Shown piece after piece: positions 6 through 33,591 of a stretch of DNA of 34,355 nt. This DNA comes from Jimgerdemannia flammicorona (lineage: Eukaryota), in the NCBI GenBank assembly GCA_003990765.1, contig RBNJ01000276.1, positions 1 through 34,355 on the forward strand. The letters are read 5' to 3'. The position numbers were made by a program, and so were the translations under genes. The notes below the pieces were generated by a model, which saw nothing but the letters and a program-made list of their open reading frames with translations, searched no databases and was not told the origin of the DNA. The stretch's first letter is position 1; every line of letters starts with the position of its first letter.

Positions 6-538
6 GAGAGTGGTATCTTGTAGCTCTTGAGTACTGGCCTGTGGGAACTCCTGGCAGAGGAGGTTTTCTATTTTGTACTCCTGCCACATTTGGAGGCATT
101 CAGTAGCAATGGTGATCCTTGTTTCCATTTTGTAGTTGTAGAGAATAAAGTGATAAGGGTCTGCAGTACCCAGGTTGACACTAGGAGTCCTTCTTGAGTG
201 AGTCCTCATGGCTCTTCTGATGTCTTGGAACATCCTTTCTTCAACTGAGGTATCTTGGTAGTTCCTTGACCTTGAGGTTTGGCAGGCAGCAGATATTTCA
301 TTTGTGGTAAGTCTTTGAGCTATTTTGGGATTGGTGGTTCTTGTTGGTTGCTGCTACTATAGTTTCTTAATCCTTTTTTTATATTCTTCAGGATGCTTGT
401 ACTGTGGTCACAATGACTCACAGTTGGTCATCATTGCTCATCTCATATACCATATGATCTTCTTGTACTCCAATCTGGTGGCTTGCAAGGAAAGGCTGTC
501 TCCTGTGCTGATGTCATTATTCTGGGGTCACCGTTACA
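6..538 (-). mobile_element. 5' portion (about 530 bp) of a Gypsy family A LTR, minus strand, inserted into the Copia element
   Basis: Reverse complement starts TGTAACGGTGACCCCAGAAT at 538 and matches 11878-12410; outer flank reads ATAT. Encodes the N-terminus of the LTR ORF (MFQDIRRAMRTHSRRTPSVNLGTADPYHFILY...). The match ends at about position 6, next to the window edge. Confidence 0.92.
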
Positions 539-3500
539 ATATATATGTACCAGATAGTCAAATGCTATTTTTATTACTCCTACTGTTGCCATTACCCAAT
601 ATAAGTATATGGTACTCCATATACTTAAGATACCTAAATATTCTATTAATAGTACTCTAATGTAAATTATTTAAGTTAGAGGAATACTTATCACTTTATT
701 TACAATATAAGATATATCTAGCCTTATTTCTAGCATGAAAAATATAAGAGAATCAATTGCTTGTCAATAGGATATGTCTTTGATACTATTTTTGACTAAT
801 GCATTATCATCATCCTCAGAAGTTATATCTAGCTTCCTTAACTTTATGGAAGTATTCATAGGAGTATCAATGGGCTTGTATTCATTTATATTGAAATATT
901 TGAAAATTGTTTAAGTATATGTTGCTTGTGAGAGATATATAGTATATACATTTCTGTCATATATAATAGATATCTCCAAAAGGAAGAATGTATCACCTAT
1001 ATCTGTCATCTTGAATTCTCTGTATAGAGTTTCTTTAACTCTATTAAGCCTATTATTGCTTGTAATAATGATTATATCATTAACCCAGATATCAATAAAG
1101 ACTATGCTACCATTATTATAGTAATGGATATATATATAATTATCTTCTTTGCAACAGATGAATCTATCATCAAAAAGATATATATCAATCCTTTTATTTC
1201 ATAATTATACTACTTACTTAATGCTATATAATTCTTTACATAATTTGTATATGAGCTCACCTTTTTTATATCCTTGCAATTAATAGAAATATAGTTTGAT
1301 ATCTATATCACTATTCAGAAATACTATCTTGATATCCATTTGATGAATTTTCAGATTATATAGCATACTGATTGTAAGGAGTATTTTAAGCAAAGTAAGC
1401 TTCAATACTGATAAAAATATCTCATTATAGTCTATGCCATAATCCTGCAAATAACCCTTAGCAATAAAATGAGTATTATATTACTCTATTCTTCTGTTAC
1501 TCTTATACTAAATTCTATAAACCCACTTTGATTCAATCATTTGACAATTTGGCAGAAGAGGTATGAGATCTCATATACTATAATAAGTAAATCATATTCG
1601 TCATCTATTATACATTCACATTTTTTGCTATCTAGAGATTGCATAGCTATATTATATATATTTGACTCACTAAATATTGCCATATATATATATTCATATG
1701 CTTCAGTATAACTTACATAGTCTTTATATTACTACTGTCTAAGATTTACTAGTATATCTAAATAACTTTCTAATTTAGAATGGGTTTTTCAATGAATATT
1801 GGAATATTTTTGCTTATTCTTTATAGAAGATTCTATAGTATTGGATCTGCTATCATCTTTATCCTTGATCTTCATTATTCTTAGCTCAGGTAACTCTGGC
1901 TCAGACTCAGGTATATATAGTATTTGAAAATAATTTTGATTGACTACTGAAAAGGTTAATATTGATTATTTCTTTAGTTACTGCATTTACATTAGCTGAG
2001 AATATAGATGTAGATGTATTGACTAGTATATCTATATAGATTTCTGATCTATTTTTTTTTTTTTTCAGAACTATATATTATATGAAATAATGATATGACA
2101 TTTGTGTAGATCTCTGAGTCTATATGTCTTACCAGTACTAGAATACCCAAGAAATATATGCTTGCAAGCTTTTAGTTTAAATTTGTACCAATTGATATTA
2201 CTTTAATTAAGAAAATATATCTTACAATCAAATTTATATAGATGTAATATATCAGACTTAGTTCTGCTCTATAATTCTTCAGGGCTAAGATCATCATTCT
2301 TATACTTATTATTATTGCTGGCTTCTTTGCTTAGCACTTGAGATATGCATTATTTATATATATATGTTACTATATTGATAGCTTTAACCCAATAGAAGTA
2401 TTCCAATCCTACTGTATTAATCATTGTATGAGCTATTTCTATGACTATATAGTTAAATTGCTTGGCCATACCATTCTGCCAAGATGTATAAAGAGCAATC
2501 ATTTGATGTTATATACTCTATTTTTTCAGAAATTACCTAAATATATCATTAATATATTAGTGTCCATTATCTGATCATATAGTATATATTTTATATCTTA
2601 TTTTATTCTTGGTAATTACTTTGAATCCTTTAAATTTCTCCAGTACTTTGTTCTTTACTGATAGGAAGTATATACATATATGCCTTATATATATAATCAT
2701 TGATGAATATGATGAAATACTTCTTTTTTAAGTATGATAGTATATGCATTGACCCACAAATATCCATATGTATAAGATCAAAGATCCTGGATATGCACTT
2801 TAACTATTCTTCAAATGGTTACTGAGATGTTTTATTTTTTATACATACTTTGCAAAAGTCATCCTTCAATTATATATATAATAGTAGTTCATTTACAAAG
2901 CTGCTTCAGAACATCCTTCTAAGGCTTAATTTGCCAATATATCCTAAGTATTGATGCTATATATTAGATATATCAGATATAGTTATTATATATATATATA
3001 GAGACTTTAATACTATTTGGCATCCTATTGATCATATAGAGATCATCATATTTCAAAGCTATTATTACCTTATTATTATGTAAATCATATATAGTTATAC
3101 TCTTTATATATATATATATTTCTTTATTACAATAGGATATTATTTTTGCTATCAAAAAGAGGGTTTTACTGATTTCTGGAATATGTATATAATATATCTA
3201 GAAAGATACTGGTAAGTTCAACAAAATTACCATAGAGATATATCCCTATATTTTCCTTTTCTTAAGTATAGATGATATTGTTGTCTCCTAATTTAATAGG
3301 TACAGAGTGTTCAAAAGGCTCATATGTAGAGAACAATTTTCTATATAGTATTATATATTATATAACTCCAGAATTCATTAGCTAGACATCATTGTATCAG
3401 CTATATTTGCAGGAGTATAATTATTACTAATAGTACTTACATCATTACCACTTTTTATTGAGTAAAAAGTATTTACTATTGATCAGAATTTGTAGATGAT

Positions 3501-3688
3501 GGGTTAGTAGATTTGGTAAATTTAGTAGTAGAACTATGTATATATGTAGATCTCATACTGGCAGACCTAGCAGTAGATCTATGATTATCTATATATATTA
3601 CTTATATGAAGAACATACTGCTTTCATCAGTTATAGTAGTATTGATATTGTCATATTTCTCTTTTCCATAATAATACTTTCTACTATC
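539..3688 (-). mobile_element. Heavily degenerate Ty1/Copia retrotransposon internal region (gag end-PR-INT-RT), pseudogenised
   Basis: Minus-strand motif remnants in Copia order: DLIHMDICGSM (about 2750-2780), PWQNGMAKQFNYIVIE (integrase QNGxAER, about 2440-2485), FIAKGYLQDYGIDYNEIF (about 1410-1470), IHQMDIKIVFLNS (HQMDVKTAFLNG, about 1310-1350), and SY*QAIDSL...RLDISY...RIFRYLK (about 625-775). Boundaries approximate. Confidence 0.88.
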
Positions 3689-5061
3689 TTTTTTTATAGT
3701 CACTTGGACTCCTTTATTCCACTAGTCTATATGAATTTAACTACAAATTTATCCTACCAACCACCTATTCCATACTATAAAGATAAAATAAACCTAACAG
3801 GTCCTATCAACCCACCCCAATTTTTCACTGCACCCCACCCTCACCTAGTACCAGATGACCCTGACTCCCCAATACAATGTCTTATATCTTCTTCACCACC
3901 CCCAACTCCTGCCTCCTCCCCTGGTGCCACCAATCCTATACTACTTCTCTTACAAGTCAGTGCTATTGCTCCACCAGGTCCCCAATATCCATCCAACATT
4001 TACCTTTAAAGACCTATTGCCAGTATATTGCCATTAAGACCCACACACCCAAGATCTGCCCAACACCTCCCCAAATGTCTCCAACATCCCCCACCAGTCT
4101 CCTCCAGGTGACTACACTGATAGAATCTCCCAGCCTCCTTCTATCAGTACCCCAATATTCCTCCAGCATCTGCCAATAACCCTTCACCCCTGGGCAGGCC
4201 TCAATGACATGCTCTGGGGTCTGAATTACTTCTCCAGAGATCTCGGCACACCATTTACAATCTCTGCACCCATTGACCACCATCCATCCTGTCTGATAAT
4301 TCGACATCATATTCCTTCTCAGGAACCACCACCAAACTACTCAATATTTAGGAGGTACCACCTTATTCAAAGTAGCCACCCATCTCTAAATTCGACCCCA
4401 TTCCCACATCTCACCAATGCCAGCTGTCTGCCATCCTACTGGCCACTGCTCAAGAGGGCCTGATCTGGCCTCTTCTATAGCCTCTACTAGAGAATAGTCC
4501 TTCAGCTCCTTCTCTTCTACTCTGTGTAGTCCAAGTTGCCACTACTACTGCTTGGGGTCAGTCCCCTCTCCTATTGCCTCCACCTCTGGCCCTGTTAGTC
4601 CCATCATAAGCCAGGTCTCAACAATGCCCCACCAGAACCCTTTGAACCTCATCCTCCCCACTGATCCAACTTGAAGTAGCCCTTGCAAATCCTTCCTCTC
4701 TGCACTCCAAGGGCAGAATCTGATCTCCCAATTGTCCATTACCAATCTGCCCCAACTTTCTTCCCCTAACTCTACTAATCGGTGACCCTACCAGCCTCTT
4801 AGTGCCTTCAACCTTCATCAAAAGTCCACCAACCCAACCTCTATCAGTAATCAGCAGCACTAATGCTTCTCATCCAATCTGTGGCCATCTACCCCTCCAG
4901 AGCTATCCTTCAATAGCCTTTTTGAGCTGCTGCACCACCCACCTAGGGAAATCTAAGTGGTAATCCAGATACCACAACTTCAGCAGCCAGTACCCATTCA
5001 GGACCACCACTCTCTCCACCAGGGAGAAGTTTCGGCCAGCTCAGCCTATCAGCACACCTTC
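3689..5061 (-). mobile_element. 5'-truncated L1/Tx1-like non-LTR retrotransposon (3' part of ORF2), degenerate
   Basis: Minus strand: RNFSLVERVVVLNGYWLLKLWYLDYHLDFP (homologous to 34080-34170), a C-terminal CCHC finger CKWC...PEHVIEAC (ORF 4014-4310), AATAAA at 3713-3718 and an A7 tail at 3689-3695. Confidence 0.85.
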
Positions 5062-5690
5062 AGTTCCCACAGGCCAGCACTCAAGAGCTACAAGATGCCA
5101 CTCCCATGGATATATGCGAAATGAGAACAGCTAAGAAGATCCATCAGATCTTCAGGCATGCACTATGGTCGATCCCCAACTTGGAGTATGTTAGAGTCTC
5201 AGATTTCAGAGATCTGTCATCCTACCATATCAATTCACTAGAAGCCAGAGTAGCTACAGAAGCCCAGTCCACTATCACTCTCAATAGTGATGAAGTAGAA
5301 GACTTCTGGCATCCTATTCTCCAGAATAACCCAGACCAATTCCTGCAAGGATTGATCTCAGTATTCCAAGGCTCAAGCATCCAGGTTAGATCTCCACAAG
5401 ATCCCACATTTGTCCCCTATTTTGTGGAAGAGAACCTTATAGACTGGAGAGCTCCAGATCTCCTTGTTTCCAATTTCCCTGCTGCCGAATGTAATGATAT
5501 CATCAGCAATGACATTATCCCACATGATATCGACATATGTGAAATGCATGATGAAGCATGCAAAGTACATGAAATACGTGACCTACATGACAAATTCTCA
5601 GACCTCATCTCCTTCGAAGATATCCTGATCTCTGATGACGAGGATGAAGCCCCTATGGTCCTGAAAATTCTGCTCTAAGTTCCTTGTTAT

Positions 5691-5820
5691 ACTGAATAAT
5701 TCCAGCACCAGCATTCTGAAGTGATGTGGAATTGTTCCAGCACTGGTATTTGATGTAATACTGAATAATGCCAGCACTGGTATTCTGATGTGATACCAAA
5801 TTATACCAGCATCCTGAACC
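5691..5820 (+). repeat. About 3.5 tandem copies of a 34-35 bp unit (core CCAGCACYRG) in U3; also at about 12995-13125
   Basis: Units ctgaataattccagcaccagcattctgaagtgatg / tggaattgttccagcactggtatttgatgtaata / ctgaataatgccagcactggtattctgatgtgata. Confidence 0.75.
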
Positions 5821-5937
5821 TGTACAACCATCAGTGCCAACCCTGGAACTTGGCAGTTTTCCTATACTGGCATTTTATTTTAGTTATTGGAATTTATATT
5901 TAGCTTTATATCTTAGCAATCATTGAATTATATTTTG

Positions 5938-5970
5938 TATAAATATCACTCTTATTTCCTCTGAAATAAA
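5938..5970 (+). promoter_or_regulatory. Putative LTR TATA box (TATAAATA) and polyadenylation signal (AATAAA)
   Basis: TATAAATA at 5938-5945 and AATAAA at 5965-5970; the same pair is retained in the other family A LTRs (13242-13274, about 15291-15323, about 22498-22530). Confidence 0.6.
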
Positions 5971-6179
5971 TTCAGTTCTATCTGGTTTACTTATACAATC
6001 CCTTACAAGTAATCTAAGAGATAACAAGATAGTTAAAGATACGAAGTTTGAGGACTATAAGACCTTGAGAAAGTACTCCAATAAGAACTTACTTATAACA
6101 AACTTGAGTTAGTCTAAGAGATATACCTTGAAGAGAATTTGGCATATTTGAAGGACTCAGCGACCACTATGTGACAACT

Positions 6180-6296: not shown

Positions 6297-9200
6297 ATGG
6301 AAATGCATCCCCCAACATTCTATGGATATACTACTAAAGAGTCAATCCTGACCTTCATTGAAGACTTTGAACAATTTGCTGCCATACAAGCCCTTGATGT
6401 GGATGCACAATTGACCCTTCTACCAGTCAGCCTCAGAGGACCTGTCAGAGACAAGTTCAATGCAGCCACCATTGCTGATGCTGGTGCAGCCAAACTTGCC
6501 AACATGAAGGCCTTCCTCAGAACAACATACTATACTGAAGAGATCAAGCAAGCTCTCAAGGATCAACTCAATACTATCTGCCAGGGACTTAGTGAAGATC
6601 CCAACTCATTCTATATCTGAATCTGCCACCAGATTGTCCTGGCTAGCTATGATGACCACCTCAAGGAACAAATAGCAGATTCAACCTTTCTCAAAAGAGT
6701 TCACCCTGAAATTGCCCTAGCAATCTGGTCTACCCTAGCTGCACTGACCCTTGATCAGAAAGTGGTCTTTGCACAGAGATATTGGACTGCCAGACATCTT
6801 GCTGAACACTTAATAGAGAAAATAACTGGCATCAAGATGGAGCCATCAAAGCCAACTAGTATCATACCTGCTACAGTTGTAAACAGACAACCAACCCCAC
6901 CTACCCCCAAGACAGCCAAAGCTGACCCAGTGGAAGAACTCACCAAGCAGTTTTCCAAGATGACTGCACATCTTGGTAATGTTGTTAGAGAAGTCTGAAG
7001 CACTAATAGGAGACCAGTGCAGAGATTTGCAGCTGCTACAGAAGAACACAATATCATATGCTTTAGATATAGAGAAGAAGGCCACTATGCAAAGAATTAC
7101 ATGACCAAAACAAGATGCAAAGCCCAACCAAGCAATGCTAGCAGAACTAGAGAACAAACCAATGCAGTAGTCATCAAGGAGATTGGTGATACTGATGATA
7201 AAGAATACTATGAGGAGCTTGAATTCTATCCTGCTACTGAAGGTACCAGAACCTGGTCCAAGCCCTATGACAAGAAGAGCAACAGCAAGCCAGTTGGAAA
7301 ACCAAAGAAGACCCCAGCTATTACTATCCAAAGCAAGACCCAATCTGAGGAAATTGATCAAGACATGGAGTTAGATGAAGCTGCCCACCAAATCATTGAA
7401 GACACTACTCCAGTCTCAGGAGAAAGCGAAAGCAAGAAGGAACAGAAGCTGTACAAGACCAAGATCCATCAGTATGATATCTACAAGAACCTCAAGAAAC
7501 AGAAGATCAATGCCACTTTGGGACAGCTAGCCAAAGTCCCTGCCTTTAGATAGTAGTTGAGAGTAAGACTTATAACTACTACTAAGAATTAAAAGTACAA
7601 GATTGTAGAAGCTCACAATGTACAGGAAGAATTCAAGAACTCAGGTGAAAAATCTAAAAGACTAGTGCAAGACATCAGCCTATACCCCATGTCAGATTGA
7701 AGACTATATCTTTGATGCTATCATTGATACTGGTGCTGGAGGATGCCTTATGAGCAAGAAGACAATTGACTGCCTAGGTTGGGACATTGAAGAGTCCACC
7801 AAGATGGTCTATGTTATAGCAGATGGTACATAAGCTACCCTCCTTAGCAAAATCCGAGAAGTCTCCATTAAGATAGGAGGAGCTATCATCCCAGTAGATG
7901 TGATTGATACAAGTACCACCAACTATAACATTCTCATTGGCAACCAGTGGCTCCACAAGGCCAAGGCCATCATTGACCTCAATGTACAGAAGATGCAGAT
8001 CAACTATAGAGAGAGAAAGGTATGAGTCTCTATCAATGTTCACAAAGGAGTCCTACCAGACATGGAGGAAGGAGATGAAGAGAGCATAGAGGTCTTCATA
8101 CACTCAGTGAACAAGAACAAGAACAAGACACCTAAGCTCATAGATGAGTAGTGGTACAACAAGATCATTGATGGCTATGCCTCTCAAAAAAGATGCCCCT
8201 ATGGTACTAGGATGTACTGCTCTGAACACCTGAATGACTGCTGGTCCTGTATTAGTGAAGTCAGGAAAATCTGCCAACAGAAACATGAGCAAGAAGCCAC
8301 TGAAGCAAAAAGGAAAGCCGAAGAAGATGACCAGCCCCCAGAGCTTCAGACTGACAGTGATGATGAGGAGGAACAAGAATCAGACATCACCCTCAAGGTC
8401 AAGAAGTTTCACCCTGAAGCCAAGATCCCAGAATATAAGACTGAAGGAGCCATAGGAATAGACCTTGCCAGCATTCAAGATGCTACCCTCGAACTACAGA
8501 CCACCACCCTACTTGGCACTAGAATTGGAGTCAAGTTACCAGAGAACCATGCTGGAATTATGAAGACCAGGAGCAGTCTGGCCAAAAGCAAAATCGCAGT
8601 TGAAGGAGGAGTAATTGACCCTGATTACACTGGTGAGATCTTCCTCATAGTCAGGAATCACAACCCCACCACCCCATTCGAAGTCAAGAAGCATGATAGG
8701 ATTGGCCAGATGCTGATCTGTGAAATCAAAAAACCCAAGATAATAGAAGCCATTGAATTCATCAAGACCAAGAGAGGAGAACAAGGCTTTGGATCTACTG
8801 GAAGAGGAGCCTATACTGCCACCAAGATTACCAAACTTGAGCACAAGAAAGATAAGGATCAGATCAAGCACACATATACTATTGGAGAAAACTTTCCTCT
8901 GGAGGAACAACTTTTCAAGATCCTGCACCAGAATGAAAGAGTACTTGCTACAGACTTCAGGGATATCCACAATCAAGAACCCAAGTACTATCATGAAGTT
9001 GACACTGGTGATACCAAGCCTATCTACCAGAAAGCCAGATCCATACCACCTGCTTACAAAGAATGGCTGCAAGCAGAACTCAAGGAAATGGAAGAAGCCA
9101 GAATCATCAAGCAAGCTATCAGCCTCTGGACCTCACTCATTGTCCTTGCCCTGAAGAAAGGAAGCAAACCTGGAGAGTTTGTGCCAAGACTCTACATTGA

Positions 9201-10323
9201 CTACAGGAAGCTCAATACCATCACCAAGAAGAATAGGCAGCTCTTGCCAAATATTCAAGAAATCCTTACCACTCTTGGAAGCAAAGCCAAATACTACACT
9301 ACCTTGGATCTGTTCTCAGGCTTCCATCAGATTGGTCTCACTCAAGATGCCAGTGAGAAATCAGCCTTCATCACACCTGATGCCACCTACATCTACCTGT
9401 GAATGCCATTCAGAATGTGCAATGCCCCAGCAAGCTTCCAGCGAATGATGAATAGAGTCTTCAGCAATGAGATTGGAAAATGGTTCTTTGTCTATATTGA
9501 TGATATGATCATCTTCAGCAACACTATATGGGAATATGTCAATCACATACAGCTAGCCCTCAAGAAGCTCAAGGAGCATGGCCTCTATATCAAGCCCAAG
9601 AAATGCAAGTTTGTAACTCAAGAAATTGCCTATCTAGGACACCTCATCAACCAGACCAGAATCCATACAGACCCTATGAAGATTTAGGCTATTGTAGCCT
9701 ACCCAAGACCCAGAACAACTACAGAAGTCTATGCCTTCCTTGGACTGGCCAGTTACTACAGAAGGTTCATCAAAAGATACTCCAACATTGCAGCACCTAT
9801 CTATGAGCTACTGAAGAAGTAGACTAAATTCAAATGGATCAAGGAGCACTAAGAAAACTTCAATGAACTCAAGACCAGGTTGACCCAAGCACCTATCCTC
9901 AGAAGACCAGATTGGAACCTAGAATTCATCCTGCAGACAGATGCAAGTGCTATAGGACTTGGAGCAGTTCTAGCTCAGAAGAAAGATGGATATGAATATG
10001 TCATCTCCTATGCAAGCCAAGATACCCATGGAGCAGAATAGAACTATAAGTCATACAAGCTTGAATACTTAGCAGTAGTTTAGGCAGTAGACAAGTTTCA
10101 CTACTACCTAGCCAGGAAACACTTCACCATTCAAACAGACCATTCTACTCTTGTCAGGCTATTCCACACTCTGAACCCCAAAGGAATATATACCAGATAG
10201 ATCTATAGGCTGCAAGAGTATGACTGTGCTGTCAAATACCACTTAGGAAAGACCAACACCAATACTGATGTACTCTCAAGGATACTCTGAAACACTCTCA
10301 TCAAGACTATTCAACATGAATAA
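6297..10323 (+). pseudogene. Gag-PR-dUTPase-RT-RNase H polyprotein of family A copy 1, disrupted by point stops and a frameshift
   Basis: Gag PPTFYGY...FIEDFEQF; decayed zinc knuckle CFRYREEGHYAKNY; protease AIIDTGA (about 7717-7737); RT LYIDYRKLN, LDLFSGFHQ, MPFRMCNAPASFQ, YIDD (9493); RNase H LQTDAS, TDH, NTDVLSR. The frame break near 7655 is absent from copy 2. Confidence 0.93.
8386..8802 (+). other. dUTPase domain inside pol (open frame here)
   Basis: All five trimeric dUTPase motifs: AIGIDL, GIMKTRSSLA, GVIDPDYTGEI, HDRIGQML, RGEQGFGSTG. Confidence 0.95.
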
Positions 10324-11564
10324 GGAGCTATACTATGGATTAATCAGCTACCTTGGGCAGTAGAAGATGCCCAACCACCTCAAACTCTGGACAATCACCA
10401 TCATCAACCAGACTTGGAAACAGTTTGAACTAGACAACACTACACTCAGAAAAGGAGGAAAGCTAATAATATCTGAACACAAGAAGTATCAAGTAATGAA
10501 GGAAGTACATGAGCAAGGATACTTAGGAGAAACCAATACATACGACAAAGTAAGAAGAACCATGTGGTGGCCCAAGATGGAAGATGACCTGTGCCAATTT
10601 GTCAAAGGGTGTGATAAGTGTCAAAAATAGAAATAAGATTAGCAAGACCAGGTACCTGGGTCATCAAGAATTGAGCCTATCCCCTTCTACCACATTACAA
10701 TGAATATCATTGGATCACTACCAGTAATACTATCAGGAAACTACTATATTATAGTTATTGTAGACCTCTTCACCAAATGGATAGAGGCAGGAGCATTACA
10801 AGAGGCCAATGCCTTCTCTATAGCTGACTTCCTGTACTGAGAAATCATCTGTCACTACAAGATACTGAAGCAAATCACAACAGACCATGGCACAGAATTT
10901 GTCAATGGATTCTATGAGATAATGTATCAGAAATATAAGATCCAGCACATCAAGACTACTGCATACCACCCTCAAGGAAATGGACAGACAGAGAGAACCA
11001 ATAAGAACCTCAAGAACATCCTAGTGAAGATCTCAGAGACATATGAGAATTGGGATAACTATCTCCCAACCACCCTCTCTGTCCTATGAGATATATGGTC
11101 ACAGAGTACACACTTTACCCCCAAGAGAGCTGCTCTTCAGAGAAGAAGATTCTGATGGAACCTCAGCCACAAATCTAGACCTAACTTAGAGATAGATTGA
11201 TGCAGAAATCCAGAGACTATACCAAATCAGGAAGAAGGCTGAAGATTACATCACCAAGTCACAAGCACTGATAAGAAAGAATGTGGAAAAGAATTACAAG
11301 GCCCTAGAACCCATCTGAATCAGAGAAAAGGTTCTACTGTATCAAAATATAGTAGAAGCCTCATGGTTGCAAAAACTGGAGCCCAAATGAGAAGGACCCT
11401 TCTATGTGCAAGATATCAAGAAAACTACCTTCTGGCTTAGAAAAATCTCAGGAAATATACTGCCTACCATAGTACATAGGAACAGACTTAAGATGTACCA
11501 CAAACCTATACAAGAGAAGTAAAACATGATGACTGCCCATGAGGTTCTAGTCCACGAATCATAA
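10316..11564 (+). pseudogene. Integrase as a separate ORF, family A copy 1
   Basis: Starts MNKELYYGLISYL in the +1 frame relative to RNase H; HHCC region (EVHEQGYLG...WWPKM...CDKCQK); core VDLFTKWIEA, TDHGTEF, YHPQGNGQTERTN; GPF motif; ends VHRNRLKMY...HES*. Confidence 0.9.
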
Positions 11565-11568
11565 CAGT

Positions 11569-11839
11569 ATGTCCCATGACCAGCAGGCTATCTGTCTGGA
11601 CCATTCTCTAAGAGATATGATACTGGCAACTACTCATCTATAAGACTTTCGAAGTCAGAGGAGTTTGAACTGTCAACTGATTGGTCAAGATCAGAATCAG
11701 GCCCTTGCTCTATATGAAGGGAGAGACCCTTCACCATCACACCAAAATACAAAAAGAAGACACTAGTCCATAAATACCACTTTTTGACCCCTTGCCAGAG
11801 GTTTTGGGATCAGCAAATTTTTCAGTACTGGACCAATGA
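11569..11839 (+). pseudogene. Putative accessory ORF3 (about 90 aa) between integrase and PPT, family A; counterpart at about 20897-21166
   Basis: ATG 4 nt after the integrase stop in both copies (MSHDQQAICLDHSLRDMILATTHL...); internal stops are explicable as C-to-T changes. Confidence 0.5.
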
Positions 11840-11867
11840 ATAAGGATGCTCAAGAAGATCTTTATTC

Positions 11868-11877
11868 AGAAGGAAGA
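11868..11877 (+). promoter_or_regulatory. Polypurine tract of family A
   Basis: AGAAGGAAGA immediately precedes the 3' LTR; identical at 21197-21206. Confidence 0.75.
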
Positions 11878-13480
11878 TATAATAGTGACCTCAGAATGAT
11901 GACATCAGCACAAGAGACAGCCTTTCCTCACAAGCTACCAGATTGGAGCACAAGGAGATCATATGGTATACAAGATGAGCAATAATGACCAACTGTGGGT
12001 CATTGTGACCACAGTATGAGTATCTTGAGGAATATAAAAGAAGGATCAAGGAACTACAGTAGCAGCAACCAATAAGACCCACCAATCTCAAAATAGCTCA
12101 AAGACTTACTACAAACAAATACCTGCTGCCCACCAAACCTCAAGGTCAAGGAACCACCAAGGTACCTCAGTAGAAGAAAGGATGTCCTAAGACATCAGAA
12201 GAGCTATGAGGATCTGCTCAAGAAGGACTCCTAGTGTCAACCTGGGTACTGGTGACCCTTATCATTATATCCTCTACCACTATGAAATAGAAACAAGGAT
12301 CACTATTGCCACTGAATGCCTCCAAATATGGCAGGAGTATGAAATAGGAAACCTTCTCTGCTGGGAGTTCCCACAGGCCAGCACTCAAGAGCTACAAGAT
12401 ACCACTCTCATAGATATATGCAAAATGAGGACAGCTAAGAAGATCCATCAGATCTTCAGGCATGCACCATGGTCAATCCCCAACTTGGAGTATGTTAGAG
12501 TCTCAGATTTCAGAGATCTGTCATCCCACCATATTAATGCACTAGAAGCCAGAGTGGCTACAGAAGCCCAGTCCACTATCACTCTCAATAGTGATGAAGT
12601 AGAAGACTTCTGGCATCCTATACAACAGGATAACCCAGACCAATTCCTGCAAGGATTGATCTCAGTATTCCAAGACCCAAGCATCCAGGTTAGACCTCCA
12701 CAAGACCCCAAATTTGTCCTCTATTTTGTGGAAGAGAACCTCATAGACTGGAGAGCTCCAGATCTCCTTGTTCCTGATTTCTCCACTGCCAAATGTGATG
12801 ATGTCATTGGCAATGACATCATCCCACATGACTTCAACATATGTGAAATACATGATGAAGCACACGAAGTATGTGAAACGTATGATCTACATGATGAATT
12901 CATGGACCTCATCTCTTTCAAAGATATCCTGACCTCTGATGATAAGGATGAAGCCCCCATGGTCCTGAACATTCTGCTCTAAGTTCTCTGTTATATTGAA
13001 TAATTCCAGCACCAGCATTCTGAGGTGATGCAGAATTGTTCCAGCACTGGCATTTGATATAACACTGAATAATGCCAGCACTAGTATTCTGATGTGATAC
13101 CAAATTATACCAGCATTCTGAACCTATATAACCATTAGTGCCGACCCTGGAACTTGGCAGTTTTCCTGTCCTGGTATTTTATTTTAGTTATTGGAATTTA
13201 TATTCAGCTTTATATCTTAGCAACCATTGAATTATATTTTGTATAAATACCCCTCTTATTTCCTCTGAAATAAATTCAATTCTATCTGATTCACTTACAC
13301 AATCCCTTGCAAGCAATCTAAGAGATAACAAGACAGTTAAAGATAAGAAGTTTGAGGACTATAAGACCTTGGGAAAGCACTCCAATAAGAACTTGCTTAT
13401 AACAAACTTGAGTTAGTCTAAGAGATACATCTTGAAGAGAATTTGGTGTATTTGAAGGACTCAGTGACCACTATGTGACA
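11878..13480 (+). repeat. 3' LTR of family A copy 1 (about 1.6 kb)
   Basis: Starts TATAATAGTGACC (decayed TGTAACGGTGACC), ends GTGACA, followed by ATAT. Confidence 0.95.
12206..12982 (+). CDS. LTR-encoded accessory protein of unknown function (258 aa, acidic C-terminus; possible alternative start at 12182)
   Basis: Open frame wholly inside the LTR; same frame open at 5106-5678 and in the 6-538 fragment; decayed homologues in both LTRs of copy 2, with the 3' LTR copy ending at the same NILL* stop. Confidence 0.75.
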   Translation: MRICSRRTPSVNLGTGDPYHYILYHYEIETRITIATECLQIWQEYEIGNLLCWEFPQASTQELQDTTLIDICKMRTAKKIHQIFRHAPWSIPNLEYVRVSDFRDLSSHHINALEARVATEAQSTITLNSDEVEDFWHPIQQDNPDQFLQGLISVFQDPSIQVRPPQDPKFVLYFVEENLIDWRAPDLLVPDFSTAKCDDVIGNDIIPHDFNICEIHDEAHEVCETYDLHDEFMDLISFKDILTSDDKDEAPMVLNILL

Positions 13481-13799
13481 ATATCAATAACTTGATAAAT
13501 AATCATCTAAATTTGATGATCTTTATTTCATTTGAAAGCCCTTAATAAGGGCTATCTAATGATACCAAGAACATTGAAATCAGATCATGCATTACTGAGT
13601 TATGAAGGAAAACATATGAATTGCCAATTTTGGAAATTATTCAATTTGCTGATTTTGGAAATTTTGTCATATAGAATGTTTACCTTAATATCTCAGTAAT
13701 GCATAATCTGATTTGTATCATTAGAAAGGGCTTATTACAGGCTTTCAAAGAACACTAAGATTATCAAATTTGGATAATTATTCATTAAGTTATTGATAT
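13481..13799. repeat. AT-rich fold-back palindrome (arms about 125-135 bp), MITE-like
   Basis: ATATCAATAACTT (13481) pairs with AAGTTATTGATAT (13787-13799); AAATCAGATCATGCATTACTGAG pairs with CTCAGTAATGCATAATCTGATTT; TTTGAAAGCC pairs with GGCTTTCAAA. Confidence 0.85.
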
Positions 13800-13855
13800 A
13801 AACATTTAATTATCTAATTTAAAAATCACAACAAAGGTTGATTCAAATCCACCCA

Positions 13856-13968: not shown

Positions 13969-15576
13969 TGTAATAGTGATCTTAGAATAGTGACATTATT
14001 ACAGGAGACAGCCTTTTCTTATAAGCCACTAGATTGAAATATAAGAAGATCATATGACATAACTCACCCAGGCTATAAGGTGATCAATGATGATAAATTA
14101 TAAGTTATGATAACTACAAGATAGATATCTCAAGAAATATAAGAAGGACCAAGAAACTGTAATAATTTAAACAAGACTCACAAAATCCTAAAATAGTTCA
14201 AAAGACTCACTATAAACAAATATCTGCCACTCACCAAACCTCAAGGTCCAGGAACTACTAAGAATTCTCAGTCTAAGAAAGGATATTCCAAGATATCAAG
14301 AGAGCTATAAGGATCTATACCAGAAGAATTCCTAGTCTTAACCTAGATACTAGTAACTCTTATCACTTTATTCTCTACTACTATAAAATGGAGACAAGGA
14401 TCACTACCACTACTAAATACCTCTGGATATAGTAGAAATATGAAATAGAGAATCTCTTCTGTCAGGAATTCTCTCAGGCCTATCCCCAGAAGATACAAGA
14501 TGCCACCACTATAGATACATATATATGAACTGAGGATAGCCAAAAAGATCCATCAGGTCTTCAGGTATACACCTTGATTAATTCCCAACTTAGAGTATAC
14601 TAGAGTCTCAGACTTCAAGAAATTGTCAGCCCACTGCACAGATGCACTAGAGGCTATAGTGGCCACAGAAGTCCAATCCACCATCACTCTCAAAAGTAAT
14701 GAGGTAGAAGAGTTCTGGAATTCCATCCTCCAGAACAATTCAGATCAATTTCTGCAAGAATTAATCTCAGTATTCTAAGGCCCCAGTATCCAGGTTAGAC
14801 CCCCTCAAGATTCCATCTTTATCTCCTACTAAGTGGAGGAAAATGTTATAGATTAGGGAGCCTCTGATCTCCTTGCTCTCTCTGCTACTACCAAACTTGA
14901 TTATATCATTAGTAATGATATCATCTCACTAATCAATATGTGAAACATATTAAATACTTGAAATAGATAGAACACTTATAGAAATATTCACTGACCTTAT
15001 CTCCTTTAAAGATATTCCAACCTCTAGCCTTAATGATAGTAATAAAGATGAAGTCTCCAGAATTCTGAACATTCTGCTCAAAGTTCTTTATACAACTGTT
15101 GAAATTATTCTGGTATTCTGATCTTATATAACTATCAGAAATTATTTCAGTATTCTGATCTTATATAACCAATTATATAGATACTCAAATTTGTACTTAT
15201 AACTTGAAGTTTTCTATTATCAAATATCTTATTTGGTTATTAAATTTTATATTTAGCTTTATAACTTAGCAACTATTGAATTATATTTTATATAAATACC
15301 CTTCTCATTTCCTTTGAAATAAAGTCAGTATTAAAATACTCAAGTATTTAAGTACTCAACTACTCAAGAACACAACTGTTCCAGTCCTGTACTTAATTCC
15401 AAGTAAGCAAATCCAAGAGACATCAGAATAGTTTAAAGATAAGAAGTTTGAGGACTATAAGATCTAGGGAAGGCACTCTAATAGAACTTGCTTATAAGAA
15501 ACTTATAGTTGGTCTAAGAGATATATCTTAAAGAGAATCTGATATACTTAGAGAACTTAGTACCTACTATGTGACA
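13969..15576 (+). repeat. 5' LTR of family A copy 2
   Basis: TGTAATAGTGAT...CTATGTGACA, followed by ACTTGG. Confidence 0.93.
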
Positions 15577-15697
15577 ACTTGGTTACTATTGACTGGTAAT
15601 ACTATTAGAATCCCTCACTTTCAAGCTAAAAAATGAATAACTACTATAACAACTACCCTGACTACAAGAGTCATCCTCTGCAAGAATTCAAGATAAG

Positions 15698-18600
15698 ATA
15701 GAAATATATCCCTTCATATTCAATGGATTTACTACTGAAGAGTAAATTCTGACCTTCATTAAAAACTTTAAACAATTTGCTACTATACAAGCTCTCAATA
15801 TTGAAGTACAATTAGCCCTTCTATCTATTAGCCTCAGAGGATCTGCCAGAGATAAGTTCAATACAGCCACCATTGCTAACACTAGTATAGCCAAACTCAC
15901 CAACATGAAGAACTTACTCAGAACTACATACTATACTGAAGAGATCAAGCAAGCTCTCAAAGATCAACTTAACACTATCTGCCAAGGACTCAACAAAGAC
16001 TCCAATTCATTCTATACCTGAATCTATCACCATATTGTCTTAACTGACTATGATAATGCCCTCAAGGAACAGATAGCTGATTCAATCTTCCTAAAAGGAG
16101 TCTATTATGAAATTGCCTTAACAATCTGGTCTATTCCAGCTACTTTGACTCTTGATCAGAAAGTGGTCTTATATAGAGATATTGGACTATCAGACATCTC
16201 ACTGAATACTCAATTGAAAGGATAACTGATATCAAGATAGAGCCACCAAAGCCAACCAATATTATACCCACTATAGCTCTCAACAGACAACTATCTCCAC
16301 CTATCCCCAAGATAACTATATACCTTAGTGTTATTGTTAGAGAAGTACAAAGTGCCAACAAGGGACTAGTGCAGAAGTTTGCAGCTACTACTAAGGAATA
16401 TACCATCATATACTTTAAATGTGAATGTGGAGAAGAAGGCCACTATATAAAGAATTATATAACTGAAGCAAGATATAGAGCCCAACCAAGTGATGCTATC
16501 AGAACTAGAGAGCAAACCAATACTGTAGTCATTGAGGAGATTGGTGATACTGATGATGAAGAATACTATGAGGAGTCTGAATTCTACTCTGTTACTGAAG
16601 CTACTAGAACCAGTCTAAGCTCTATGATAAGAAGGACAACAGCAAGCCAGTTAGAAGATCAAAAAAGACCTCAACTATCATTATTCAAAGTAAGACCCAA
16701 CCTGAGGAGATTGATCAAGATATGGAGTTAGATGAAGCTGTCTACCAAATTATTAAATATACTACTTCAGTCTTAGGAGAAAGTGAAAGTAAGAAAGAGC
16801 AGAAGCTATGCAAGACTAAGATCCACTAGTATAATATCTACAAGGATCTCAAGGAATAGAAGATCAATGTTACTTTTAGACAACTATGAAAGTCTCTGCC
16901 TTTAGATAGTAGTTGAGAGCAGGACTTGCAACCACTATTAAGAACCAAGAGTACAAGATCATAGAAGCTCACAATATACAGAAAGATGAACAAGAAGACT
17001 CAGGTGAAGAAGCTGAAGATCAGCACAAGATCTCACTCTATACTTAATATCAGATTGAAAATTATATCTTTGATGTTATCATTGATACTAGTGCTAGAGA
17101 ATACCTTATGAGCAAGAAGGCAATTGACCATCTAGGCTGAGACATTGAAGAATCTACCAAAATAGTCCATGTGACAGCAGATGGTATACAAGCTATCTCT
17201 CTAGATAAGATTCTAGAAGTCCCCATCAAGATTAGAGGAGCTGCTATCTTAGTAGATATGTTTATTATAAGTGCTACCAAATATGACATCCTCATTAGTA
17301 ACCAATGGCTTTATAAGGCCAAGACTATTATTGACCTTAATGTTCACAAGATACAGATTAACTATAGAGGAAGAAATTTACAAGTCTCTATCAATGTCCA
17401 CAAAGAAGTATTACCAGACATGGAGGAAGAAGATGAAGAGAATACAGAAGTCTTCATGTACTCAGTATATAAGAATAAGAGCAAGACAACTAAGCTCACA
17501 TTTGAGTAGTGGTATAATAAGAGCATCAATAGCTATGCCTCACAAGAAAGATGCCCTCATGGTATCTGAATGTACTGCTTTGAACACCTAAATGACTGCT
17601 GGTTCTGTATCAGTGAAGTTAGAAAAATCTATCAACAAAGGCAAAAATAAGAAGCTACTGAAGCAAAAAAGAAAGCCAAAGAAGATGTCCAGCCTCCAGA
17701 GCTTCAAGCTGATAGCAATGATGAGGAGGAATAAGAACCAGACATTACTCTTAAGGTTAAGAAGTTTCACCCTGAAGCCAAGATCTCAGAATACAAGACT
17801 AAAAGAGCTGTAGGAATAAACCTTGCTAACATCCAAGATGTTATCCTCAAACCACAGACCACTACTCTACTTGACACTGAAATTGGAGTCAAGTTACTAG
17901 AGAACCATGCTAAAATTATCAAGACCAGGAGCAGTCTGGCTAAAAGTGAAGTCTCAGTTGAAGGAGAAGTCATTGACTCTGATTACACTAGTGAGATCTT
18001 TCTTATAGTTAGGAATCACAACCCCACCACCCCATTCAAAGTTAAGAAGTATGACAGGATTGGCCAGATATTGATCTATAAAGTCAAGAAGCATAAGATC
18101 ACCCAAGCCATCAAACTCATCAAGACCAAAAGAGAAGAACAAGGCTCTGGATCTACTGAAAGAGGAGCCTATACTACTATCAAGATTACTGAACTTGAGT
18201 ATAAGAAAGACAAGGACCAGAACAAGTATACATATACTATTGGAGAAAATCTTCCCCTAAAAGAATAACTTTTAAAGATTCTATATCAGAATAAAGGAGT
18301 TCTTGCCACAGACTTCAGAGACATCCATAATCAAGAACTCAAGTACTACTATGAAGTTGACACTAGTGATACTAAGCCCATCTACCAGAAAGCCAGACCC
18401 ATAACACCTGCCTACAGAGAATGGCTATAAGCAAAACTCAAGAAAATGGAAGAAGCTAGTATCATCAAGCAAGCTATTAGCCCCTGAGCTTCACTTATTA
18501 TCCTTACCTCAAAAAAAGGAAGCAAGTCTGGAGAGTTTATCTCAAGACTCTATATTGATTACAGGAAGCTTAATGTAATTACCAAGAAGGACAAGCAGCC

Positions 18601-19655
18601 CTTACCAAATATTCAAGAAATTCTTACCACTCTTGGAAGCAAAGCCAAATACTACACTACCTTGGATCTATTCTCAGGCTTCCATCAGATTGATATCACT
18701 CAAGATGCCAGTGAGAAATTAGCCTTTATCACACCTGATACCACCTATGTCTACTTATGAATGCTATTTGGAATATGCAATGCCCAGCAAGTTTTTAGCA
18801 AATGATGAATAGAGTCTTTAGTAATAAAATTGGAAAATGCCTCTTTGTCTATATTAATGATGTGATCATCTTCAGTACTACATGAGAATATATCAATCAT
18901 ATATAGCTAGCCCTCAAGAAGCTCAAGAAGAATGACCTCTATATCAAGTCTAAGAAGTGCAAGTTTATAGCTCAATCTAGGATACATTATCAACCAAACT
19001 GGAATTTATATGGACTCTATGAAGAATGAGGCTATTGTAACCTACCCAAGACTCAGAAGTTCATGCCTTCCTTGGGTGGGCCTCCTACTATAGAAGATTT
19101 ATCAATGGATACTCCAATATTACAGCACCTATCTATGAGCTACTGAAGAAGGAGATTAAATTTGAATGGATCAAAAAACATCAAGAAACCTTCAACAAAC
19201 TCAAAATCAGATTGACCTAAGCACTCATCCTCAGAAGATCAGATTGGAACCTAGAGTTTATTCTGCAGATAAAATCAAGTGCTATAGGACTTAGAGCAGT
19301 GCTAGCTCAGAAGAAAGATAAATATAAATATATCATCTCCTATATAAGCCAAGATACCTATAGAGCAGAATAGAACTATAAGTCATATAAGCTTAAATGC
19401 TTAGCAGTAGTCTAGATAGTAGACAAGTTCCACTACTATCTAGCTGGGAAATACTTCACTATTCAAACAGATCATTCTGCTCTTATCTGGCTATTCCACA
19501 CTCTAAACCCTAAAGAAATATATATCAGATTGATCTACAGACTGTAAGAGTATAACTGTACTATCAAATACTACTCAGGAAGAATCAATGCCAAAACTGA
19601 TATACTTTTAAAGATACCTCAAAATATCCCCATCAAGACTATTCAATATAAATAA
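15698..19655 (+). pseudogene. Gag-PR-dUTPase-RT-RNase H pseudogene, family A copy 2 (dUTPase about 17744-18160)
   Basis: Colinear with 6297-10323: IIDTSA, VIDSDYTSEI, DRIGQIL, DYRKLN, LDLFSGFHQ, YIND; many stops. Confidence 0.9.
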
Positions 19656-20892
19656 GAAGCTATACTATAGATTAATTAGCTACTTTGGGCAGCAGAAGAT
19701 ACTCAATTACCTTGAACTCTGGACTATCACTATTATCAATCAGATATGGAAACAATTCAAACTAAATAATATCATACTTAGAAAAGGAGAAAAGCTCATC
19801 ATACTCAAATATAAGAAGTATCAAGTAATGAAGGAAGTACATGAATAAGAATACTAGGAGAAATCAACATATATAATAAGATAAAAAGAACCATATAGTG
19901 ATCTAAGATAGAAGAAGACCTGTGCCAATTTGTGAAAGAGTATGATAAATATCAAAAATTGAAACAAGATCAGTAAGATCAGATACTCAGGTCATCAAGA
20001 ATTGAACATATCCTCTTCCACCACATCACAATGGACATCATTGGATCACTACCAGTAACTCTATCAGAAAACCACTATATCATAGTTATTGTAGGTCTCT
20101 TTACCAAATAGATAGAAGCAGAAGCATTACAAGAAGCCAATGTACTCTCTATTACTAACTTCCTGTATCAAGAAATCATCTGCTACTACAAGACACCAAG
20201 ACAAATCACTACAGACTGCAGCACAGAATTTATCAACAGATTCTATGAGATAATATATCAGAAATATAAGATTCAGCATATCAAGACTACCATGTATCAC
20301 CTTTAAGGAAATAGACAGATAGAAAGAACCAACAAGACTCTTAAGAACATCCTGGCTAAGATCTCAGATCCATATGAGAATTGGAATAACTATCTCCTAA
20401 CTGTCCTCTCTGTCCTATAAGATATATGCTCACAGAGTATACACTTTACTTTAAGAGAACTGCTCTATAGAGAAGAAGATTCTGATGGAACTCTAGCCAT
20501 AAATCTAGATCTAACTTAGTGATAGATTGACTCAGAAATCTGGAGACTACACCAAATCAGGTAGAAGGCAGAAGATTATATTATCAAGTTTCAAGTACTA
20601 ATAAGAAAGAATACAGAAAAGAATTACAAGACTCTAGAACCTATTCAAATTGAAGAAAAGGTTCTTATATCAAAATATAGTAGAAGTCTCATAGTCACAA
20701 AAACTGGAGCCCAAATGAGAAGAACCCTTCTATATACAAGATATCAAGAGAACTACCTTTGGGCTTAGAAAACTCTCAGAGATCATACTACCTACTATGG
20801 TACACATAAACAGACTTAAGAACTATCATGAACCTATATAAGAGAAGCAAAATATGATGACCACCTGTGAGGTTCTAGTCTGTGAATCATAA
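19648..20892 (+). pseudogene. Integrase ORF pseudogene, family A copy 2
   Basis: Colinear with 10316-11564 and has the same frame offset from RNase H; start codon reads ATA. Confidence 0.85.
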
Positions 20893-21206
20893 CAGCATGT
20901 CTCATGACTAGCAGATAATCTGTCTGGACCATTCTCTAAGAGATATAGTACTAGCAACTACTTATCTATGAGACTTTTGAAACTAGAGGAGTTTGAACTA
21001 TCAACTGATTAATCAAGATTAGAATCAGACTCTTGCTCTATATGAAGAAAGCTACTCTTTATCATTATGCCAAAATATATAAAGAAGATGCCAGTATATA
21101 AAATCCACTTTTCAACCCCCTGCCAGAGATTATGGGATCAGAAAATTTTTCAGACTAGACAAATAAATAAGAATATTTAAGAGAAGATCCTTATTCAGAA
21201 GGAAGA

Positions 21207-22783
21207 TATAATAGTAACCTTAGAATAGTGACATCATTATAGAAGACAGTCTTTCCTTACAAGCCTCCAGATTGGAGCATGAGAAGATCATATAGTATAA
21301 CTCACCCAGGATACAATTTGAGCAATGATGATAAGAAGGACCAAGAAACCACAGTAGCAGCAACTCAAACAAGACTCACAAAATCCTGAAATAGTTCAAA
21401 AAACTCACTATAAATAAATATCTACTACTTGCCAAACCTTAAGGTCCAGGAACCACTAAAGATTTTCAGTCTAATATAGGATTTTCCAAGATATTAAGAG
21501 AGCTATGAGGACTTGTATCAGAAGGATTCCTAGCCTTAACCTGGATACTGGTGACTCTTATCACTTTATTCTCTATCACTGTAAAATGGAGACAAGGATC
21601 ACTACCACTACTGAATACATACCTCTAGATGTGGCAGAGATATAAAATAGAAAACCTTCTCTGCTGAGAATTCTCTCAGGCTAATATCCAGGAGATACAA
21701 GATGCCACCTCTATGGATATATATGAACTGAGGGTAGTCAAAAAGATCTATCAGATCTTCAGACATATACCTTGATCAATCTCTAACTTGGAGTATACCA
21801 GAGTCTCAGACTTTAAGAAATTGTCAGCCTACTATACAGATGCACTAGAGGCCATAGTGGCCACAAAAGTCCAATCTACCATTACTCTCAAAAGTGATAA
21901 GATAGAAGAGTTCTGAAATCCCATCCTTTAGAACAATCCAGATCAATTTCTGCAAGGATTAATCTCAGCATTCTAAGGCTCTAGTATTCAGGTTAGACCT
22001 CCTCAAGATCCCACCTTTATTCCCTACTTTGTAGAGGAAAATATCATAGATTGGAGAGTCCCTGATCTCCTTGCTCTCTCTACTGCTGCTGAATGTAATG
22101 ATATCATTGGCAATGATGTCATCTCACTAATTGATATGTAAAAATATGTGAAACATATGAAATATGTGAAATAGATAGGATGCTTATAGAAATATTTACT
22201 GACCTTATCTCCTTTGAAGATATTCTAACCTCTGATCTTGATAATAGTGATGAAGATAAAGTCTCCAGAATTCTGAACATTCTGCTCTAAGTCTTTATAC
22301 AACTGTTGAAATTATTCTAGTATTCTGATCTTGTATAACTGTTAGAAATTATTCCAGTATTCTTATCTTATACAATTAATTATACAGACACTTGAATTTA
22401 TACTTATAATCTGAAGTTTTCTATATTCAAATATCTTATTTAGTTATTGGATTTTATATTTAGCTTTATAACTTAGCAACTATTGAATTATATTATGTAT
22501 AAATATCCTTCTCATTTCCTTTGAAATAAAGTCAGTATTAAAATCCTTAAGTATTCAAGTATCCAACTACTCAAGTATACAATAGTCCCAGTCCTCTACT
22601 CAATTTCAAGTAAGCAAGTCCAAGAGACAATAGAACAGTTTAAAGATAAGAAGTTTGAGAACTATAAGATCTTAGAAAGGCACTCTAATTGAACTTACTT
22701 ATAAGAAACTTATAGTTGGTCTAAGAGATATATCTTGAAGAGAATCTGATTTACTTGGAGAACTTAGTACCTACTATATAATA
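21207..22783 (+). repeat. 3' LTR of family A copy 2
   Basis: Follows the PPT; terminus GTGACA decayed to ATAATA. Confidence 0.92.
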
Positions 22784-25085: not shown

Positions 25086-25087
25086 TT

Positions 25088-25105
25088 TGGAAGCTCAACT
25101 GGGAA
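25088..25105 (+). promoter_or_regulatory. Primer binding site of family B, tRNA-Pro-like
   Basis: TGGAAGCTCAACTGGGAA lies 2 nt after the LTR end and resembles the tRNA-Pro PBS TGGGGGCTCGTCCGGGAT after G-to-A and C-to-T decay. Confidence 0.6.
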
Positions 25106-25477
25106 GATTTCAAATCAATGTGACTTTTCAGCTCACAAGAACCTACAGTCAAACTGGATACATTTGATATAATACCAATTTCTACCACTACAGGAGAACC
25201 AGTCATCACTAGTATTTGGACAGGAAGAGAAGTAATTACATCAAGACTTGCCAACTACCCAGCATCAGAATGATCCCAACCAGAACCAGAAGGCAGTGCA
25301 GCCTGAAATCTCCAACCAGATCAACCAGACAATACAGGCAGTCCTACTAGAAATTTCAAAGAACTTGCACAAGAATTAGAAGATCTTATCACATGAACCT
25401 GAGACCTTACAGCCAGACACCCCATATTAGTCCCACCAATCTCATCAATAGAATCTTTACCACAACCCCTTGCAGAG

Positions 25478-32603: not shown

Positions 32604-32630
32604 AGGATAGCCTGGGACAGACTACCCTTT

Positions 32631-33585: not shown

Positions 33586-33591
33586 CTCAAA

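Follow-up and report, generated by a model that had tools for sequence, protein, structure and literature searches.

Genes enclosed in the long terminal repeats (LTRs) of retroelements are known mainly from a few complex retroviruses. In mouse mammary tumor virus (MMTV), the superantigen gene sag is an open reading frame (ORF) in the unique 3′ (U3) region of a long LTR, upstream of the TATA and poly(A) signals. The accessory genes tas and bet of foamy viruses reach into U3 and have an internal promoter, and the Tas protein carries an acidic activation domain. The nef gene of human and simian immunodeficiency viruses (HIV and SIV), a 3′ accessory gene, begins upstream of the LTR and extends into U3, and its product bears an N-terminal myristoylation signal. 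Here we describe a gene located inside the LTR of a Ty3/Gypsy retrotransposon in a 34,355-nt stretch of DNA from Jimgerdemannia flammicorona (GenBank assembly GCA_003990765.1, contig RBNJ01000276.1, positions 1 to 34,355 of the forward strand), hereafter referred to as the window. The gene is very probably real and maintained by selection, and it encodes a protein that was not found in any named proteome among the 1.84 and 5.8 billion proteins searched.

As with sag, a complete ORF lies in an LTR of more than 1 kb, upstream of the LTR TATA and poly(A) signals, so that each end of the element carries a copy. Whether counted from its ancestral start position (12119) or from its present ATG (12206), the frame ending at 12982 falls wholly within the LTR at 11878–13480. 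Sag, however, is a type II membrane glycoprotein of a betaretrovirus, whereas the window protein has no hydrophobic segment, shows no detectable similarity to Sag and is carried by a Ty3/Gypsy element. With tas and bet the gene has in common, as read from sequence alone, a position at the 3′ end or in U3, possibly a promoter of its own and an acidic C-terminus of the product; it differs from them in that the whole gene is inside the LTR, and none of 13 family members gave a Pfam match to Tas at E ≤ 1. Like nef, it would be a 3′ accessory gene in U3, but it lies entirely within the LTR, the proteins of its family start with MP.., and no similarity to Nef was found.

Extra ORFs of LTR retrotransposons have been described at other positions. 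The available part of one review reports additional ORFs (aORFs) in the plant and fungal LTR retrotransposons Athila, Bagy2, Grande, RIRE2, Retand and Boty that are conserved family-wide, are of unknown function, lack homologs outside the elements and belong to the internal region, where they either separate the 5′ LTR from gag or follow pol ahead of the 3′ LTR (PMC7264820). The ORF in the window is likewise a conserved extra ORF but lies past the polypurine tract, inside the LTR. It also differs from the env-like ORF3 of errantiviruses and Athila-type elements in being inside the LTR rather than between pol and the LTR, and in encoding a protein without a membrane segment. Ty3/Gypsy elements that bear a dUTPase, as the carrier does, include PosPlaTy3-5 from basidiomycetes (PMC2864245) and Juno, Vesta and TelKA from bdelloid rotifers (PMC5408684). 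They resemble the carrier in the order protease, dUTPase, reverse transcriptase (RT), RNase H and integrase, in a GPF-type integrase end and in the absence of a detected chromodomain. The bdelloid LTRs measure 159–551 bp and the extra ORFs (ORF3) of these elements are internal (PMC5408684); the available portions of PMC2864245 and PMC5408684 mention no LTR-borne gene for dUTPase elements. A literature phrase search for ORFs within LTRs, which covered a limited library and a limited set of wordings, returned no retrotransposon case and only an MMTV review. A preliminary description of the window had noted that an LTR-borne gene is not a standard Ty3/Gypsy feature, and this view was supported.

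The ORF inside the LTR and its coding status

The window contains two Ty3/Gypsy copies of one family, E1 and E2, on the same strand. In the 3′ LTR of E1 (1,603 bp), an ORF of 258 codons occupies 48% of the LTR length, close to the half that had been estimated beforehand, and as described there it lies upstream of the tandem repeats, of TATAAATA and of AATAAA (Table 1). From its start, the LTR is composed of TATAAAAG, a conserved leader of about 50 nt, the gene, the 69-bp tandem repeat, TATAAATA and AATAAA, with approximately 210 nt from AATAAA to the LTR end. The ORF could be traced in all five LTR copies of the family, three of them open where visible and the two of E2 decayed, and the LTR copies containing it are preceded by three different flanking sequences. 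The longest stop-free run of the LTR was 263 codons, a length reached by none of 300 dinucleotide-preserving shuffles (mean 88, maximum 156).

Substitutions between the E1 and E2 copies of the ORF fell on codon positions 1, 2 and 3 in the proportion 57/44/94 (p = 3.5e-5). The integrase core, used as a positive control, gave 34/36/64 (p = 0.002), and the LTR downstream of the ORF gave no signal (37/44/30; p = 0.29). In a sliding window, the third-position signal extended from near 12040 to near 12900. The ratio of nonsynonymous to synonymous change (omega, NG86) in the ORF frame was 0.18–0.29, the lowest of the six frames in all four E1–E2 pairings, with 0.35–1.7 in the other frames. Pairs of LTRs within one element, which reflect post-insertion divergence, gave an omega of 0.53–0.56, the neutral baseline under strong transition bias, and in neither of the two pairs was the ORF frame the lowest. 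After removal of transitions in CpG and CpA(TpG) contexts, the third-position excess was kept in 4/4 E1–E2 comparisons (p = 0.014–0.018), which share ancestry and are not independent, and no such excess was seen in the within-element pairs or the downstream LTR. Transversions alone showed a weak third-position excess (17/11/18 and 13/11/17). Since first codon positions had a higher G+C than third positions, deamination bias alone did not explain the third-position excess. Base use at third positions of the ORF equaled that of pol. The preliminary description had taken the ORF for real coding sequence and had tied this to dN/dS between the two subfamilies and to a signal not confined to CpG and CpA sites; purifying selection between E1 and E2, length beyond chance and the relatives described below all bear it out.

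A search of 5.8 billion proteins returned five clusters at 59–77% identity, a HMMER pass over 1.84 billion representatives found five relatives, the longest of 342 aa, and a wider profile run against the 5.8 billion proteins found 11 clusters. Altogether about 14 protein clusters were obtained, 87–342 aa long and 23–83% identical to the window ORF, which share one architecture. It was kept down to 23% identity and comprises a MPxxR...QT start, W.EYEI, AKK.HQ.F.H.P, a W.P.LQDNPDQ.LQ...FEGPPI core, I.W..P and an acidic tail that is variable in length and ends in the motifs DLISF.D and P.VLNF. All relatives came from metagenome collections, and none was named or had a Pfam domain. One natural homolog was recovered together with its DNA: L001, an intact ORF of 291 aa on a 1,535-nt metagenome contig that is not CpG-depleted, whose protein is 43–45% identical to the window protein. 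It was the single locus found in a second scan of metagenome contigs with P0008 as the query; a profile search with the family alignment found no related locus in metagenome contigs or viral contigs. The flanks of L001 are unlike the window LTR except for the leader block. Within the window, the gene is specific to its family, and the neighboring dUTPase-bearing family (24005–33281) is without it.

Comparison with the relatives also showed damage to the window copy. In five diverged relatives the protein begins with MP.. at the position of 12119, 29 codons upstream of the window ATG; the window has ATA there and, at 12188, an in-frame TAA. The window ORF thus corresponds to the C-terminal 258 of about 287 codons; the 258-aa frame reported earlier exists, but as a remnant of a longer gene rather than as a complete protein. 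Contigs of four sequencing runs, three labeled as soil metagenome and one as an organism, were aligned to 11500–13700 at a likeness of at least 85% and yielded 2008, 431, 252 and 122 matching pieces per run, so the family is abundant in those sequenced samples. Contigs of runs X1 and X2 have ATG at the 12119 position, at loose contig ends, and those of runs X1, X2 and X5 pass from the LTR end at 13480/13481 into primer-binding-site sequence. Because the contigs mostly have G or C where the window has A or T, the window copy is deaminated. Contig cover was thin over 12758–12905, the length-variable acidic region, and nothing was concluded from it.

The ORF and the integrase share frame 2 of the window, and a C-terminal extension of pol, such as an integrase tail or chromodomain, was therefore considered as a candidate. 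It was ruled out by the end of pol, where the GPF...HRNRLKMYH module stops near 11440, by in-frame stops in the approximately 440 nt before the polypurine run and in the first 240 nt of the LTR, by the lack of a chromodomain, and by the relatives of 87–342 aa that start with MP... A TAA within TATAAAAG closes the frame just upstream of the gene, and in L001 a stop lies 17 codons before the ATG. No fusion to pol occurred among the five representatives from 1.84 billion proteins. The gene is not part of pol.

Carrier elements and surrounding sequence

The carrier is a Ty3/Gypsy (Metaviridae) element, as seen from its pol domain order, direct LTRs, primer-binding site, polypurine tract and short target-site duplication. 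Over 7666–11086, Pfam domains of E1 were arranged as aspartyl protease, dUTPase, RVT_1, RT_RNaseH_2, Integrase_H2C2 and rve; in the Pfam and sequence check of E1, gag had no Pfam match and pol had no chromodomain. A search with pol returned only a metagenome match at 88% and generic RT matches. The primer-binding site, ACTTGGTG..., follows the 5′ LTRs, and GGTGAT comes after it. The LTR ends read T[G/A]TAAT...GTGACA, and E2 has a 4-bp ATAC duplication at both flanks. The first dinucleotide was consistently TA in both 3′ LTRs (11878 and 21207) and TG in the 5′ LTR of E2 (13969) and the reverse-strand copy (533–537, −). A dUTPase lies between protease and RT in both Gypsy families of the window (8152–9399, Pfam E = 6e-27; 28709–29536, E = 2e-16).

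Table 1. Coordinates of the LTR copies, the gene copies and the associated signals in the window.
Feature	Position	Strand	Basis or remark
Fifth LTR copy	6–537	−	Cut off by the left end of the window
ORF copy, fifth LTR	296..9	−	First 96 codons of the gene visible, open
E1 5′ LTR	5062–6176	+	First ~480 bp absent, homology from 5062
ORF copy, E1 5′ LTR	5064–5678	+	204 homologous codons (5064–5675) open
Polypurine run (putative, by position)	11867–11877	+	Also before the E2 3′ LTR
E1 3′ LTR, 1,603 bp, whole gene inside	11878–13480	+	Self-comparison, copy alignment, boundary read-out
TATAAAAG, candidate promoter of the gene	12033–12040	+	86 nt upstream of the ancestral start
Leader/start block	12100–12136	+	80% identical to L001 over 41 columns; other flanks unalignable
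Ancestral start-codon position	12119–12121	+	ATA in 4/4 window copies covering it
In-frame TAA, E1 3′ copy	12188–12190	+	Gln in the reverse-strand copy, P0001 and P0002
258-aa ORF, ATG to stop	12206–12982	+	ORF list, chance test, selection tests; stop to stop from 12191
ORF copy, E1 3′ LTR	12206–12982	+	Open over 258 codons
69-bp tandem repeat, ×2	12997–13132	+	Between ORF and downstream TATA
TATAAATA, presumed promoter of genomic RNA	13242–13249	+	Kept in 4/4 LTR copies covering it
AATAAA, presumed poly(A) signal	13269–13274	+	Kept in 4/4 copies
E2 5′ LTR	13969–15576	+	Self-comparison and copy alignment
ORF copy, E2 5′ LTR	14220–15079	+	Decayed: 9 stops, 2 frame changes
E2 3′ LTR	21207–22783	+	Self-comparison and copy alignment
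ORF copy, E2 3′ LTR	21433–22287	+	Decayed: 7 stops, 2 frame changes

The window is of eukaryotic type and extremely depleted in CpG, with an observed/expected ratio of 0.06; in E2 the ratio was 0.00, all CpG being gone. Compared with E1, E2 (13969–22783) has lost TG/CA and gained TA. Together, these figures indicate that the repeats are under very strong C-to-T decay, through methylation-linked deamination or a process resembling repeat-induced point mutation (RIP). Both E1 and E2 are dead. In E1, pol is interrupted by many stops and the LTR pair shows 91.2% identity (8.8% difference); E2 is 72–75% identical to E1 in the LTR.

A palindromic element of about 320 bp (13481–13800), foldback-like or resembling a miniature inverted-repeat transposable element (MITE), adjoins the end of the E1 3′ LTR. 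At 13483, contigs of three runs break off and share another flank, which makes the element itself a repeat. The place of the first ~480 bp of the E1 5′ LTR is taken by a G+C-rich (49%) stretch at 3500–5061 with overlapping frames of 100–170 aa on both strands and no Pfam match, and the frame of the gene copy in the E1 5′ LTR runs on open by chance into 4947–5061. The third dUTPase-bearing element (~24005–33281) belongs to another family, family B. An antisense frame of 159 aa in its 3′ LTR (32672–33148, −) has several stops in the 5′ LTR copy (24034–24700, −) and is probably due to chance. Beside family B, an open frame of 279 aa with an RT match (33517–34353) is cut by the right-hand edge of the window and represents a further retroelement.

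Nature of the product and expression of the gene

No membrane segment was detected in the seven family members examined (maximum Kyte-Doolittle(19) value ≤1.07), so it is not an env-like or a Sag-like protein. Its charge is uneven: strongly acidic over the last 80 residues (net −10 to −17) and, in the relatives, neutral to basic over the first 50 (net 0 to +7). The N-terminus is rich in Pro, Arg and Ser. Pfam returned nothing for the ORF and no significant match for the 13 members, the sole row being ATG5_HBR (best E = 0.088, in 3 of 13), which was taken as noise, as were the PHROGs matches (E 0.02–0.09). A sequence profile search of the PDB gave no match at E ≤ 10. AlphaFold2 models built from 6 and 13 sequences had predicted local distance difference test (pLDDT) scores of 33.9 and 42.3, too poor for use, and the best Foldseek match of the second model in the PDB (E = 0.82) was meaningless. 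The ESM Atlas offered no useful match (best feature scores 0.89 and 0.83; pLDDT 0.35 for its model of P0002), and profile comparison with the gag of the element gave a probability of 0.2%, i.e., the two are unrelated. The one point on which the low-confidence models agreed was a helical front half followed by a disordered tail. The product would accordingly be pictured as a soluble orphan protein with a conserved, mostly helical front half and a poorly ordered acidic tail. Our best guess is that it has a regulatory or adaptor function in the life cycle of the element and is neither a replication enzyme nor an envelope protein. A folded front combined with an acidic tail bearing short hydrophobic motifs, encoded directly upstream of the tandem repeats and the presumed genomic promoter, fits such a function, and the protein might be an LTR promoter activator or an anti-silencing factor. 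An activator-like regulatory role in particular is doubtful.

The octamer TATAAAAG that precedes the gene in the window recurs 80 nt upstream of the ATG of L001, and between these two sequences the DNA of the leader/start block is better conserved (80%) than the protein (43–45%). The matching distance and the conserved leader favor a promoter of the gene's own within the LTR, to which we would give a little less than even odds. In both subfamilies, no other non-coding part of the LTR is as well conserved as the block of TATAAATA and AATAAA (13190–13300). This favors the conventional U3 reading; the gene thus probably lies in U3 rather than in the repeat (R) region, an assignment made solely from the position of TATAAATA and AATAAA. 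The downstream TATA would then start the genomic RNA and AATAAA would end it. Given a location in U3, each cycle of reverse transcription would copy the gene to both ends of the element. In the most likely mode of expression, each LTR would constitute a small transcription unit, with the upstream TATA as promoter and the poly(A) signal borrowed from the LTR, and the protein could be supplied in trans by 3′, 5′ and solo LTRs alike. The notion that solo LTRs would spread the gene needs rephrasing, as solo LTRs spread nothing; at most they would keep a copy and perhaps express it. We assign a probability of roughly 0.5 to the reading as a whole, namely an LTR gene of about 287 codons, situated in U3, with its own promoter and a regulatory role. 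An extension of it, in which every LTR, dead and solo ones included, is an autonomous gene cassette whose orphan product serves the family in trans, for example as an LTR promoter activator or anti-silencing factor, the host methylating repeats heavily, seems unlikely.

Some of the same observations admit other explanations. The gene is in sense orientation downstream of pol, in the 3′-terminal part of the presumed genomic RNA, where it could be expressed from a spliced subgenomic RNA of the full-length transcript in the manner of env or an accessory gene; it would then be an 'ORF3' that came to be enclosed in the LTR since the polypurine tract lies upstream, and the upstream TATA would be irrelevant. 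A C-rich stretch, an AG and a CTTAC-like element 20–35 nt before the start, in both the window and L001, might form a 3′ splice site, GGTGAT after the primer-binding site is compatible with splicing, and the available text of PMC7264820 states that sense additional ORFs of barley Bagy2 are expressed by splicing. These splice signals, identified by visual inspection, are weak, however, and splicing does not account for TATAAAAG at the same distance in a homolog of 43–45% identity, so we consider it a minority possibility. The conserved TATA box at the right distance in a distant homolog can also be read as the main promoter of the element itself. The ORF would then lie in an R region of ~1.25 kb, as the cap-proximal cistron, either in the genomic RNA or in a short transcript ending at the AATAAA of the same LTR, which at 1.2 kb downstream is placed for efficient use. 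This is improbable in view of the conservation of the TATAAATA/AATAAA block, which has the usual spacing between TATA and poly(A) signal of an LTR with a short R. Furthermore, an upstream ORF of 287 codons would strongly impede translation of gag by scanning, and we know of no R region longer than 1 kb.

It could also be argued that a host gene was transduced into the LTR together with its promoter and is decaying there as a passenger without benefit to the element. Both TATA box and leader accompany the ORF, as they would in an intronless gene that had been captured; L001 shows no CpG depletion and has flanks unrelated to the window LTR, and gene capture by LTR elements is documented in the available text of PMC7264820. 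The selection signal, however, was found between two subfamilies, both LTR-borne and about 25% divergent in DNA, implying that the gene was kept while riding in the LTR. The lack of homologs in named proteomes among the 1.84 and 5.8 billion proteins and the pol-like base use at third positions also speak against a passenger, which we therefore regard as rather improbable; the absence of the gene from the family at 24005–33281 fits a passenger and an element gene equally well. That the ORF is merely a chance open frame is scarcely credible. An excess of A over T on the strand (AT skew 0.16) lengthens random frames, and no known domain or fold was found, but the shuffles never attained the observed length, codon-position asymmetry and the lowest omega were restricted to the ORF frame, and relatives down to 23% identity have invariant residues in common.

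For the reading as a U3 gene with its own promoter and a regulatory role, several points have to be set on the other side of the balance. The chance of TATAAA at −60 to −110, estimated from shuffles, was 0.056 for the window and 0.027 for L001, but the two occurrences are homologous and the two estimates cannot simply be multiplied. In both E2 copies the upstream TATA is degenerate or partly deleted. The boundaries of U3, R and the unique 5′ (U5) region, the transcription start and the poly(A) site were placed from sequence features only and are thus provisional. The start codon is missing from the window copy, which an early stop also interrupts, and the element carrying it is dead. The context of L001 comprises just 1,535 nt, and the distant homologs could be host genes that are not LTR-borne; as metagenome proteins are picked as open frames, the share of intact copies among them is overstated. 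The proposed role is weakly inferred, from composition and architecture only, without support from Pfam, PDB, PHROGs, AlphaFold, Foldseek or the ESM Atlas.

Implications for LTR retrotransposons

Extra genes of LTR elements have usually been sought internally, while the LTRs themselves are treated as non-coding and masked, and genes of this kind would therefore be missed systematically. A conserved gene in the LTR changes the annotation of such elements. The retroviral solution of placing an accessory gene in U3 would also have arisen in Ty3/Gypsy elements, and if the reading holds, this would be the first accessory gene at the position of sag, tas or nef in a Ty3/Gypsy retrotransposon. As the protein belongs to an orphan family with no annotated member and no confident fold, its function would be new biology. 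The arrangement also leads to the testable idea that solo and dead LTRs may go on supplying a trans-acting factor. Should the LTRs indeed be autonomous cassettes, hundreds of LTR relics would constitute a distributed reservoir of the factor that is visible to selection.

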